Origin: Lingula anatina
Lineage: Eukaryota > Animalia > Brachiopoda
Assembly: GCA_051362555.1 (NCBI GenBank)
Contig: CM120640.1
Span: 4,836,001-4,900,000, forward strand
Reading direction: 5' to 3'
DNA: 64,000 nucleotides
The notes under the pieces are model-generated. The model was not told the origin of the DNA. It did not search any database and saw nothing but the letters and a program-made list of their open reading frames with translations. Both the position numbers and the translations under genes were made by a program. Positions 21,201 to 27,200 of the stretch are shown here, one piece after another. Every line of letters starts with the position of its first letter. Positions within the stretch are counted from its first letter, which is position 1.

Positions 21201-24200
21201 ATATCAATAAATTATTGAACCAGTAATTTTAGCTGACCATATACACCTCTTGAGGAATTTTTCACAGCTTATAGATTTTAGGGCTTCCAGTGCAGTCAAT
21301 AATGCATTAATTTTTGATGGCTGAAGCTGTTGGTGATAGAGATTGTATAACTTAGTGTTGTTCTTTTAGGCAGCTGGGCACCAACCTTATTATCCCAGGT
21401 GGTGCCAAGACCATTGAGGCCAAAGGAAAGATGATCATACCAGGTAACAACAGGGGGACATTGGACATCAAATGTCCAAAATGAATTTATTTTCTCTTTT
21501 TTTTTTTCATTTTTCAAATGGGATTAATAGTTTCAAAATGTTCATGAACTTGATGTTTTCAGTTCAGGTTTGAACTTTTTCAGAATTCTGAAAAAAAAAG
21601 AAAAAAGTTAAAGCTATTCCTGGCACTGCTCATGTCAAAGCTTCACTTCCATGGTTAATCAACATATATCTGCACTTTTCCTCTGAAATGTGTTATTTTG
21701 ACTAATAATTACTAGTATGCATTTTCATTTGTAAATATGGCATTTTCTATAGAGGAAAGCTTTTATAGAGGAAAGCTTTTGATAATATGAATTATAATAA
21801 TAAAATATAAGTTGTTAACACTACAGTAGTTGACCTAGTTCATCTGGCTTGTCCTTGCCACTATAATGTAAGCCAGCTTTGTTTTGATCAAACATAAGTA
21901 CATCTCTAATGAGGTAGGGAGAACTGGGTTCAATATTCAAAAGGATAGATTGTCATCTCTAAATCTTCTTAGAATCTTAGCCAGCTAAGTTGCATTTGAT
22001 AAAATATGCTTACCTCAATATTATTTTTACAATAATTTTTTCTCACATTGACTACTATAAGTCAACAATGTTTTACTTGGCTGATCCTACTGAAAACAGT
22101 CTAAGATTGCTATTGTTTACTAAATTTGAATACTTAACTTTTTGATTTTAGCAAGCTTAGCTGAGTTTTTTTTTTATTTCGAGGCTCTGAGAAATAAAGG
22201 AAAATTATATAGGCAGATTGGAAATGTAACAAGATACAAAATGTTACGAGTACATTCTTCTTTCCTATTTCACAATTATAATGAAACATTGATGATGCTT
22301 ATGTTTTATACTTCAGGTGGTATTGACACCCACACCCACATGCAGCTCCCCTTTATGGGCACCTTTGCCTGTGATGACTTCTACACAGGCACCAAGGCTG
22401 CCCTAGCTGGGGGCACCACCATGATCAGTAAGTCTGGACCACTGGCTTATATTACCATGTACACTCTGCCTCTTGTGGCTTGTATACTAGTCTGATGTTA
22501 CAAATTGGCACTGGTTGGAAGGTCAAAGGAAAAGCCAATTTAGTCTGATAGAGTTATAGGCACCTAGCTCTTGCATTTTCCTGTTCGTTTATCATAAATA
22601 CATAAAGTACTTGCTATAAATACGCAGTTGTCATGTTACAGGAAGAAGTCAAAAAAAAGGAAATAACATAGCAAACTTATGTACATTTGATAGAATGCAA
22701 TAATATGGACATGTTAATTTTGAAGGAATTAATAGAACCTGTATTTTTTAGTTGACTTTGTATTGGACCAAAAGGGGGTGTCACTTGTGGAGGCCTATGA
22801 CAAATGGCGTGGCTGGGCGGACCCTAAGGTGTGCTGTGATTATGCTCTTCATGTCGGCGTGACGTGGTGGAGCGATGAGGTGGCCAAACAGATAGAAGAG
22901 TTAACTCGGGATAAAGGTATTGCTGAGAGAATTGCACTTGAACCAGTTGTGAAGATGATGATGATGCATAATAGAACAGCTTTGTTTTTATGATAGATGC
23001 GTAATATTATTATTTTAAACTTTTATGAAGATTTTGAATTTTATGTGAAAGATATGATATGGAAGATGCATCAGTAAATTTTCCTATTTTTATCTTCATT
23101 TATATGATTTTTTCTCATGTAGGGTCATAAGATTTGGACTTCATCAGAAAGATTATATATTTTGATTCTTATGCAGGTATCAACTCCTACAAAATGTTCC
23201 TTGCCTATAAAGATGTGTTTATGCTCAATGATGATGAACTTTACAAAGCATTTAGAAAGTGCAAAGAAGTTGGGGCAATTGCACAGGTACATGCTGAGAA
23301 CGGACATCTTATAGCCGAGGTAAGCCGACAGAGAAAGAACATCAGATATAAAGCAATTGTGCATAGAAAAAAAATAAGATTTAAGTAATTCCTTATTCTC
23401 AAGTGAATATTGCCTAAAATGGTGCTAGTAACATCTTATTTAAAATACAATCTGTTTTATTTTCAGAAATCTAAAGAAATGATAGACATGGGAATCACTG
23501 GGCCTGAGGGTCACATGTTGTGCAGACCAGAGGAGGTAGCTTATTTACTTTCTTCAGATTGATTAGCTTCACTCTGCTTTTTTTTCGTTATTTAGACAAA
23601 TACCATTGTTATCTTATTTTGAATGCAAATATTCTCCATTTCTCAAATGATTTTAATGCTTATTGGTATTTAATGTGATAAGTATTACTTTATAACAAAT
23701 AACAATTAGTAATCAATGCATTAGCATAAAGAACACTTGCACCGAAACATGTACAGTTAAGATGATTTTTGACTTATTGATTTATTGCTAGTGTAGAATG
23801 TTTCAGATGGTGTCTTACTCTGATAAAGTTCAGAGCAGGAGATATTTGTACAGATTAAAGATGTTAATACATTAAATGGTTAGTTTATAAAATCACACCA
23901 TGAAATACTTCATATCAGTTGAACTACGATTGGTATTATAAAATACTCACATTCCCCAGGGTGAAGCCGAGGCCACTATGAGAGCTATTACATTGGCCTC
24001 CACAGCCAACTGTCCACTTTATATCTGTAAGGTGATGAGCAAGAGTGCTGCTGAAGTCCTAGCTAATGCCAGAAGACGAGGTACCATGGCGGAAGCTGTG
24101 CCACGATCATTGTTGTTTTTGTTCTTATTGCTATTATCTTTTGTTTTATTTCCCATCTTTTGCCACTTTCATTTTCAGTTTTGTTGTTTTGGGGCTCTAT

Positions 24201-27200
24201 TTACAAAACATCTGCTTACAAATAACTGTTGGTTGATAGTTTGTTGTGAGCTTAAAACTTACAGGATGAACAAAAAAACATGTTGAATAATGACATTGTT
24301 TTGCAGTGAAAGGCCCTTTTTTATGACATGGTATACTTTAGTGATACATTTCTATTGGTGTTCTCTGAGAGATTCTAACATAAGTTGTGCTACCGGGGGT
24401 TATCCCCCTTCTGCTGTTGAGTTAGGATAATTAATTGGCTGTGCCAAGTATGGAGGCTGTTTAGGTTTCTGTCAATCTCTCAAAGTGCACTGATACGGGC
24501 TGTATTTCTATGGACCGAACTGCATGTGAAAAGGGCCTAATGCACCCTTTTGATGTTTGTTAGATATTGCCTATATTTTGCTTTGAATTTTTTTTTTTAT
24601 TGTTTGTGCTTTATTTCCAGTCGGAATGATTCTTGTCTTCCTTGAGCTTACAGGTGTGGTTTATTGACTAATGCATGTTTTTTGTTCTGTTTTGACATGA
24701 TTTGTGTCTTCTTGGTCAAAGGTTGAAGCTGAGGCTACACAGAGAGCTATCACGATAGCCGACCAAGCTAATTGTCCCCTGTATATTGTACATGTCATGA
24801 GTAAAAGTGCAGCTAAAGTTGTATCAAGTGCAAGAAAGAAAGGTATAACTAATTTGCTGCACAGTGTCCTAATGTCTGCTTTAAATGGTGCCAGAATTTA
24901 ATTTGTTTTGAATAATCCTTTCCTTGCCAGTTTCTCTTGATTGTTGGTTGGTACCATAGCCTAAAATTTCTTTACTGCATTTCCAAGAGTATAACTTAGA
25001 AGTAACTTTATAAAGCAATTTAAATATTTTTAATATAATTGTATTGAATTTAATTTTCCAACAAGATTTAACACCCAAATGTGATTAAATGTAATTGTTT
25101 GTAGTGTTTGGCAAAGCTTAAGATAATGAATTGTTTTAATATACAAGCATGTTATAATTATGATTGTTCTTTCATTAGGAAACATAGTGTTTGGAGAGCC
25201 TATTGCAGCCAGTCTTGGCACCGACGGCACCCATTACAATAACAAGTGCTGGCGCCATGCAGCAGGTCATGTGATGGGACCTCCACTTCGCCCTGACCCA
25301 ACCACACCAGGGTACCTCATGGATCTGCTGGCAAAGTAGGTCATCATGACATAATTCTTCTTCTTTTCCATTTGGTATTTTTTAGTAGACCATGGAGCTT
25401 AGAGTAACATTCACTTTGTATTTAGGATAGATATGCATGTAGTGTTGCAACAAAGAATTGTGTAATTGCACAGGCAGTAAAACTACGCAGTGTGAATGTT
25501 ATTGATTAGTGTTTGTAAGAATATCATGACAGGTCCAGGTTACTGCACTTAAATATATATTATGCCATCCAATTGAAATAGCTATTGCTCTTCTCCAATT
25601 GAGTGGTATGCTTAACTGGACCAGTCTGGTTTGCCAGGCCTTAACTATCTCTCACAGGTTCTCCACAAGTTTGCTCCTTGCTGTTTAGTTATATCAGTTA
25701 ATTGTTGTGCAGGGTCTCTTTTAAGCCAGGCTTTTAAGTTGTCAATCAGTCAGAGAGGACCGATTATTTGAAGTTCACTGCTTGATGTGAAAAGGACCTT
25801 TCTTTAATGACAATTTTAACATTCCATGATCATTTTAGTGGAGACCTTCAGGTGACTGGTACAGACAACTGTACCTTCAATGCTGACCAGAAGGCTCTCG
25901 GTGCTGATGACTTCAGGAAGATCCCCAATGGTGTGAACGGAGTGGAGGACAGAATGTCAGTCATTTGGGAGAAAGGAGTCGTAAGCAGAGTTTGTTTGTT
26001 CATGTTGTGGGTTGGCGCCATTTACTGGCTGCCATGTCTCTGCATAGTACACAGTGCACCGCAGTCCTTTAGTTTCCAGTAGAAAATTCTTGTATTTGGT
26101 TGGTTCATTTTGTCAGCTGTAGCAAAGTCTTAAACAGAGATTTAAGATTGGAAAGATGTGTTTGAGGACTGAAAATGTTTGCAAGATACATCTTAAACAC
26201 ATAACTACTGGAATGTTTATGAATGTACAGTTACAAATGTACAAGCCACTGATTCTGCTTTATTTCAGCACACTGGTAAGATGGATCCTTGTCGCTTTGT
26301 TGCTGTTACAAGTACCAATGCTGCCAAAATTTTCAATATTTACCCAAGAAAGGTATTAATTTTTCTCTATTATTGGTATTTCGTTAGAGCTGTTTAATTT
26401 GTTTTAATATTATGCCAGTGAGTGCCATAATTTTTGTCTTCTGTGTAAGTCCCAGTTTTTATTTAGACTATAATATATATAATTCTATAAAGTATAATTC
26501 TTTGTGAAATAAAACTAAGTCAAAAATAAAAATGATGATATGAAGTAGTATATTTCTCATAAAGTTGCCAGCTAATCACTATAAAAACCATAGGTTAGGT
26601 GAAATACATCACATTTAGCAATTAAAACCATATTTTTGAATCCAACATGAAGGATGTTTTTGTTGCTGCCATGTAGGGTAGAATAGCAGTTGGATCTGAT
26701 GCAGACTTAGTCATCTGGAACCCTAATGCCACCAGGGTGATCTCAGCCAAGACGCACCACCAGGCTGTGGACTTCAACATCTTTGAGGGCATGGAGTGTC
26801 ATGGCGTAGCAGAGGTTGTTATAGCCAATGGAAGAATAGTTCTAGAGGATGGACAGGTATGGGAGGTGTCTTTAAAAAAGTGTCATGTTTTTATTGCTGT
26901 TTTAATTGTATAAGTGTCATGTTTTTATTGCTGCTTTAATTGTATAATTTGAGAATTAAGCATTGTGGAGTTTGGATAAGAGAAGAGAAAAAAGATAATT
27001 TGGTGTTATGATTAAATACAAGATACTGAGGCAAGGAATGAAATAAGATTTTATTGTGTTGATTGATATGTTGATCCATACACAAAAAGAAATATTCATG
27101 GTGTCAAGTTGTTATTGTTTTGTTTCTGTTCCAGCTTCATGTTGTTCAGGGCATTGGGCGCTTCATTCCAACTCCACCTAATGCAGAGTTTGTGTATGGA

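Follow-up and report, generated by a model that had tools for sequence, protein, structure and literature searches.

An exon switch of the enzyme/pseudoenzyme type in a dihydropyrimidinase gene of the brachiopod Lingula anatina

The 64,000-nucleotide stretch of the Lingula anatina genome analysed here (the window; assembly GCA_051362555.1, contig CM120640.1, positions 4,836,001 to 4,900,000, forward strand) contains a dihydropyrimidinase gene in which two homologous alternative exons, A and B, constitute a real, regulated exon switch of the enzyme/pseudoenzyme type. The collapsin response mediator proteins, or CRMPs, have a central place in axon guidance and count as textbook pseudoenzymes, and how their split from dihydropyrimidinase came about is unsettled. 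In L. anatina, a single gene probably gives rise to both kinds of protein, an enzyme via exon B and a CRMP-like non-enzymatic form, likely of nerve cells, via exon A. Splicing of exon B would result in a dihydropyrimidinase with six metal ligands, and splicing of exon A would place a Lys at the position of one zinc-binding His, thus likely providing the animal's CRMP-like form.

Exon A (positions 23960..24080) and exon B (24722..24842), both on the plus strand as are all features mentioned below, are each 121 nucleotides (nt) long, preceded by AG and followed by GT, entered in phase 0 and left in phase 1, and are separated by an intron of 641 nt (24081..24721). According to the RNA reads, they share the donor of a 69-nt upstream exon (23467..23535) and the acceptor of a 157-nt downstream exon (25179..25335). 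Between the two copies, 82 of 121 bases are identical, as are 27 of 40 residues, with residue 24 being Lys in A (codon 24029..24031) and His in B (24791..24793). Inclusion of either exon alone keeps the frame, while including both or neither leads to an immediate stop, and such out-of-frame transcripts would be destroyed. Hence, the original prediction of two paralogous 121-nt exons with identical phases, of a frameshift when both or neither are included and of a Lys replacing the His at the same offset is correct in each of these points. The exon A peptide exactly matches a segment of the RefSeq L. anatina dihydropyrimidinase isoform X2, and among the isoforms of the corresponding cluster (10 of 11 compared) exon A is contained in one and exon B in nine; both isoforms are already annotated, albeit under the plain enzyme name. 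A third or remnant copy is absent from the 64-kb window, as an exon profile scored the two copies at 72.6 and 84.1 and the next hit at -4.6, with nhmmer being concordant. Only 3 of 14 fourfold sites are identical between A and B, and six of the seven listed read variants within exon A are synonymous, which argues that exon A is old and under constraint. A recent duplication or conversion of the pair is rejected by the same fourfold sites.

For determining exon usage, junction reads from eight of the nine listed RNA runs were inspected, which are coded without tissue labels and for which joints are listed from three reads upward. The donor at 23535 was joined to A and B, respectively, by 0:34 reads in run X1, 11:2 in X4, 35:7 in X7 and 18:9 in X8 (15 of 18 joints listed), as well as by 0:46 reads in X2, 17:2 in X5, 4:12 in X6 and 32:18 in X9 (from the complete list of five joints). 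Exon A was thus used in six of the eight runs, with 117 reads in total on the junction into it. Exon A was connected to the downstream exon by 9 reads in X5 and by 22 reads in X9, with no such joint listed for X2 or X6, and exon B by 43, 0, 4 and 15 reads in X2, X5, X6 and X9, respectively. All four junctions are therefore present in the reads, and neither an A-to-B nor a skipping joint is found among the five joints of the latter four runs at the threshold of three reads. The junction counts bear out the predicted mutually exclusive use of A and B, which can be regarded as practically certain. As the A:B ratio differs between the runs, the choice is regulated by sample.

Exon residue 24 aligns with position 239 of Pseudomonas aeruginosa dihydropyrimidinase, H248 of human DPYS and K254 of CRMP2, in line with the expectation that His-24 is a metal ligand. 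H248 is one of the six zinc ligands of human DPYS, as stated in a preprint (bioRxiv 10.64898/2026.06.14.731825), and the P. aeruginosa variant H239A is inactive according to a passage of PMC4437985. Isoform B possesses all six metal ligands plus the substrate-binding Tyr and Asn, like mouse DPYS, and its best PDB matches are dihydropyrimidinases; from these sites, isoform B is predicted to be a hydrolytically active dihydropyrimidinase. Isoform A deviates from B at 13 positions, every one within the exon, and has lost one ligand while retaining five of six. Because this residue is a metal ligand whose loss kills the bacterial homologue, isoform A is very probably catalytically inactive; one of the two zinc ions would be lost and hydrolysis would stop. 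Consequently, it is predicted to represent a minimal pseudoenzyme, unlike the chordate CRMPs with only two to three of six ligands. As the fold and the surfaces of the tetramer would be kept along with the Tyr and Asn that bind the substrate, isoform A may serve as a scaffold or as a dihydropyrimidine binder. CRMP2 binds dihydrouracil with an apparent Kd of about 4 μM (same preprint, bioRxiv 10.64898/2026.06.14.731825), and a substrate-binding role of isoform A is therefore possible alongside a cytoskeletal one. A single-sequence structure prediction reached a mean predicted local distance difference test score (pLDDT) of 36 and was not used. The assumption that vertebrate CRMPs carry Lys at the H248 site applies to CRMP2 and most CRMP1-4 rows, but not to nine teleost DPYSL3-type rows, which have Arg as has the amphioxus CRMP, nor to the CRMP5-like row with Asn.

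This kind of exon switch is not confined to insects. His/Lys isoforms are found in Pecten, Mizuhopecten and Argopecten, each with 17 differences confined to the exon segment, besides an unrelated 13-residue gap in Mizuhopecten, and gene models of Mytilus and Mya contain both exons with the His exon first. A pattern scan of metagenome contigs resulted in 12 loci, five of which bear both exons, corresponding to four distinct genes (L011 is near-identical to L010). All ten exons of these loci are 121 nt long with AG/GT flanks and in His-first order, and the best named matches of the four genes are bivalves, with L002 being only weakly placed by its two exons. His-first order is thus seen in seven of seven other records showing the order and Lingula alone is Lys-first, a reversal that the original prediction did not contain. 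In six of the remaining loci, a compact and unplaced gene contains a single copy of the Asn type together with an extra intron (five by profile, L005 with a weak partial match), while L012 gave no exon match. In five of them (L001, L003, L006, L008, and L009), the gene is animal-like with compact introns and has Asn in place of the His, an altered first ligand motif and the extra intron interrupting this very exon, being apparently another dedicated pseudoenzyme gene as far as deducible from its sequence. Searching the ESM Atlas retrieved chordate-rich DPYSL clusters only.

In arthropods, the situation is different in that the His/Asn pair of the shrimp Penaeus differs across about 93 residues, corresponding to this exon and the next one. 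All non-His forms (Lys, Asn, and Pro) seen in chelicerates belong to clusters that lack a His isoform and have lost further ligands, and hence represent separate genes. Ligand-deficient separate genes were encountered in scorpion, horseshoe crab, tick, ostracod and one further record (P0161, P0165, P0176, P0405, P0199, and P0202), which suggests repeated births of CRMP-like pseudoenzymes.

Two sequence motifs may be involved in controlling the exon choice. A CELF/UNC-75-type element, TGTTGT, is located 31 nt past the exon A donor (24111..24116) and is a candidate activator of the Lys exon, whereas an RBFOX-type element, TGCATG, lies 50 nt before the exon B acceptor (24672..24677, with a second copy at 24521-24526) and is a candidate for repressing the His exon. 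In the first 40 nt past the donor, TGTTGT occurs at five of five Lys exons and at 1 of 13 further donors of this gene, and none of five His exons has it within 60 nt (background 2-7%). Likewise, five of five His exons have GCATG in the 130 nt preceding the acceptor, compared to one of five Lys exons and 1 of 13 further acceptors, at a background of 13-23%. Both motifs follow the exon type, whatever the exon order, and this placement is the best argument for Lingula exon A being the mollusc Lys exon moved and not newly invented. RBFOX bound upstream of an exon represses it. Accordingly, a CELF-type protein just past the Lys exon would promote its use and an RBFOX-type protein just before the His exon would repress the latter. 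UNC-75, a neuronal CELF protein of Caenorhabditis elegans, activates exons via downstream (G/U)UGUUGUG elements in neurons (PMC3627589), and in the same nematode CELF and RBFOX proteins jointly select a neuronal mutually exclusive exon (PMC3627589 and PMC3585155). As the motifs track the exon type and in analogy to this precedent, use of the Lys exon in nerve cells is predicted, with a likelihood which we put slightly above even. Steric exclusion as the cause of mutual exclusivity is not supported, as the 641-nt intron is too long unless a distant branch point is used, for which the AG-free zone of only 66 nt before B gives no support, and for RNA pairing at docking sites only chance-type imperfect inverted repeats were found, the longest of 22 nt at 73-77%, judged without a shuffle control.

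The relation of the exons to those of other animals was addressed with a tree of 43 exon peptides and 40 columns, leaving out the six Asn-type loci, L012 and L011. With all columns, a single clade (support 95/85) unites Lingula A with the mollusc-type Lys exons, the amphioxus CRMP and CRMP1-4 of vertebrates. When removing the His/Lys column, the Lys-CRMP group is found at 81/79 with one His row added and Lingula A dropping out. The mollusc Lys exons and CRMP1-4 have Val at residue 6 in common. A segment from Solemya (P0163) has His at the site but Val-6 and Thr-29, which are typical of mollusc Lys exons, and it clusters with the latter once the His/Lys column is removed; reversion or conversion is possible in this case. 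Taking trees and motifs together, descent of the Lingula and mollusc pairs from a common one appears rather likely. Brachiopods and molluscs would then have separated only after the pair had formed, and Lingula may have acquired its reversed order when one exon was re-duplicated, together with its flank, to the opposite side and the original was lost thereafter.

Several observations weigh against a shared and neuronally regulated switch as outlined. Joints with fewer than three reads are unlisted and decay could hide both-exon products. Isoform A is the major form in five of the eight runs, which is too high an abundance for a rare neuron-only form unless the runs are nerve-rich or larval. 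Lys isoforms were not found among the four full-length members listed for Owenia, the 15 listed of 95 oyster members and the 11 full-length members listed for freshwater snails, which may be due to annotation or loss. The motif windows were picked after the data had been inspected, TGTTGT is at +31 in Lingula versus +11/+12 in the other four genes, and TGCATG is unenriched across the window (65 occurrences versus 55 expected). Moreover, exon A shares more residues with its own B than with the Lys exons of the metagenome loci (20-25 of 40) and has Thr at residue 6 as the His exons do, most Lys exons having Val. Without the His/Lys column, Lingula A is unplaced, with P values of the approximately unbiased test (p-AU) of 0.32 for an A+B clade and 0.30 for the Lys set, neither of which is thus rejected.

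The closest competitor is an independent origin in brachiopods, in which a single His exon was duplicated, the upstream copy gained Lys and the splicing motifs converged, the reversed order then being the mark of a separate event. It is in line with the order being opposite to that of all seven records, with the high A-B identity and with A+B clades not being rejected (p-AU 0.32 and 0.39). Besides, arthropods repeatedly lost this His in favour of Lys, Asn or Pro, and since these losses occurred several times independently, the change is easily repeated. Nevertheless, both motif types accompany the same exon type as in molluscs, A and the scallop Lys exons have the Cys-Lys pair and nearby residues in common, the unit is an identical 121 nt and the all-column tree joins A with the Lys exons. 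On balance, an independent origin is considered unlikely, although it should be taken seriously.

Turning to chordates, isoform A is, judged by the whole protein, not a member of the CRMP family, though it may work like one. In a tree of 23 rows with the exon masked, the Lingula protein falls into a lophotrochozoan enzyme clade (99/99), and joining the chordate CRMPs to lophotrochozoan genes is disfavoured (p-AU 0.038). Hence, exon and remaining protein give different groupings, as is predicted by a gene duplication with reciprocal exon loss; this conflict is a modest signal, 40 columns being few. A quick exon-masked tree with chordate DPYS and CRMP as one clade (97, with a long ostracod row inside) was not reproduced by the 23-row tree. 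The exon trees favour, but do not prove, that the chordate CRMP descended from the Lys exon, as an exon clade of chordate DPYS and CRMP, i.e., without shared origin with the Lys exon, is still compatible with the data (p-AU 0.34-0.35). The proposal of the original prediction that DPYS and CRMP arose by duplication and reciprocal exon loss is thus favoured by the exon trees but faces this viable alternative. Not borne out is its vertebrate-specific timing, since amphioxus already has a CRMP gene of its own, which carries Arg at this position and groups with vertebrate CRMP1-4 (98/94), and any gene split must therefore be older than vertebrates. Vertebrate CRMP genes presumably still have an exon of 121 nt in the equivalent place, and one DPYSL3-like gene model breaks precisely at the start of the equivalent exon.

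That the exon pair is ancestral to chordate DPYS and CRMP is conceivable but, in our estimate, falls somewhat short of an even chance. The same tentative standing applies to the wider scenario: a single gene in the last common ancestor of molluscs, brachiopods and chordates might have provided both the pyrimidine enzyme and a neuronal CRMP by means of a His/Lys exon switch under CELF/RBFOX control, and a duplication early in chordates might have fixed one exon per copy, founding DPYS and CRMP. Lophotrochozoans would have retained the switch, with the Lingula exons having swapped places while keeping their control elements.

With respect to function, isoform A might alternatively be a tuned enzyme in which Lys or water substitutes for His, resulting in reduced activity or an altered substrate range. 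Only one of six ligands is altered and the substrate residues are intact, while dedicated CRMP genes keep two to three ligands, and A is plentiful in several runs. However, the H239A exchange by itself was sufficient for abolishing the P. aeruginosa activity (the cited passage of PMC4437985), and the inactive CRMP2 has the same Lys. Moreover, the retained ligands are uninformative in an alternative-exon design, because isoform B needs them and they cannot change in isoform A. A tuned enzyme is therefore regarded as improbable. That the second exon is an artefact of assembly or annotation, or else a duplicate in decay, might be suspected from the false tandem repeats in other models of this family (one frog and one nematode record with two His copies each), but is refuted by the reads on the junction into A and also disagrees with the saturated synonymous sites between A and B, the mostly synonymous variants in A and the matching pair in other genomes, so that its probability is negligible.

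The remaining parts of the gene are common to both isoforms. The shared dihydropyrimidinase body begins with the first common exon, ends at the stop (20452..28035) and holds the other five metal ligands plus the substrate-binding Tyr and Asn. It is preceded by alternative first coding exons (3891..18603) with starts at 3891, 8219, 10561, and 18283; additional four-residue first-exon starts at 12425, 15519, and 18592 are short matches and less certain. The start at 8219 gives a long N-terminus of 99 residues, resembling the long/short forms of vertebrate CRMPs. First-exon use may accompany the A/B choice, as loose read ends at 20452 vary by run. At 27625-27646, an alternative donor located 21 nt further on lengthens the C-terminal tail by seven residues in 9 of the 10 RefSeq isoforms compared, and the listed reads use the shorter donor at 27625. 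Directly past the dihydropyrimidinase gene, a single open reading frame (30147-31772) encodes a subtilase (Peptidase_S8, E 1e-24) whose tail is rich in Thr/Ser and whose end is hydrophobic, followed by exons of the RNase P/MRP subunit POP1 (37436-40064) with the POPLD and POP1_C domains within 38853-40064.

A switch of this type has been described from flies, for which Morris et al. in 2012 is said to be the primary paper on paralogous mutually exclusive exons and may treat other animals as well. The Drosophila CRMP gene (FBgn0023023, isoforms PA and PB) is likewise one gene with homologous alternative exons, one losing a zinc-binding His, and the isoforms are reported to differ in tissue and function (passages of Lam et al., 2021, PMC7954323). 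The ligand is replaced there by Gly (PMC7954323 and preprint 10.1101/292813), in contrast to the His-to-Lys change in Lingula, which is that of CRMP2. Furthermore, the pancrustacean unit, known from the one pair of Penaeus, comprises about 93 residues versus 40 in Lingula, and the arthropod non-His rows nest among arthropod His rows (97/97, one nematode row inside). In line with this, one clade of all non-His forms including arthropods and the CRMP5-like row is rejected (p-AU 0.033), and a clade of the Lys set plus the Penaeus form is close to rejection (p-AU 0.066). The claim that the switch is older than usually described thus stands as regards the non-insect host, the diverged fourfold sites and the pair shared with bivalves, while its identity with the fly switch is weaker than stated.

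Compared to chordate CRMP/DPYSL proteins, the likeness consists of Lys or Arg at the H248 site, the fold family and alternative long/short N-termini; however, these proteins are encoded by separate genes, whereas Lingula A is an isoform of the enzyme gene. With DPYS (EC 3.5.2.2), isoform B has the six ligands and the substrate-binding Tyr and Asn in common, and the Lingula gene differs by its several first exons and its C-terminal tail; a second exon form of vertebrate DPYS was not found among the proteins retrieved, i.e., at the protein level. The passages of PMC7325199, PMC10153444, and PMC10332324 covered do not mention the exon pair, and literature searches, with most subscription papers being outside their coverage, found no account of a mollusc or brachiopod pair. 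What is new, for a switch resembling that of the fly, is its occurrence in another clade, the smaller size of the unit, the Lys as in chordates and the exon order, which is reversed in Lingula and provides a case of duplicated exons apparently trading order with each keeping its own splicing signal. With 13 residues of a single exon distinguishing the two states, the first step toward a pseudoenzyme is isolated, and with isoforms being otherwise identical it is testable which of these changes end catalysis and which add a role. Splice isoforms separating after gene duplication, each copy keeping one homologous exon, have been compiled by Abascal et al. (2015, PMC4494069), with 11 events reported and neither CRMP nor DPYS named in the text. 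The route resembles that proposed for DPYS versus CRMP, but the cases compiled there are within vertebrates, and the gene described here is a candidate pre-vertebrate example of splice isoforms becoming separate genes.

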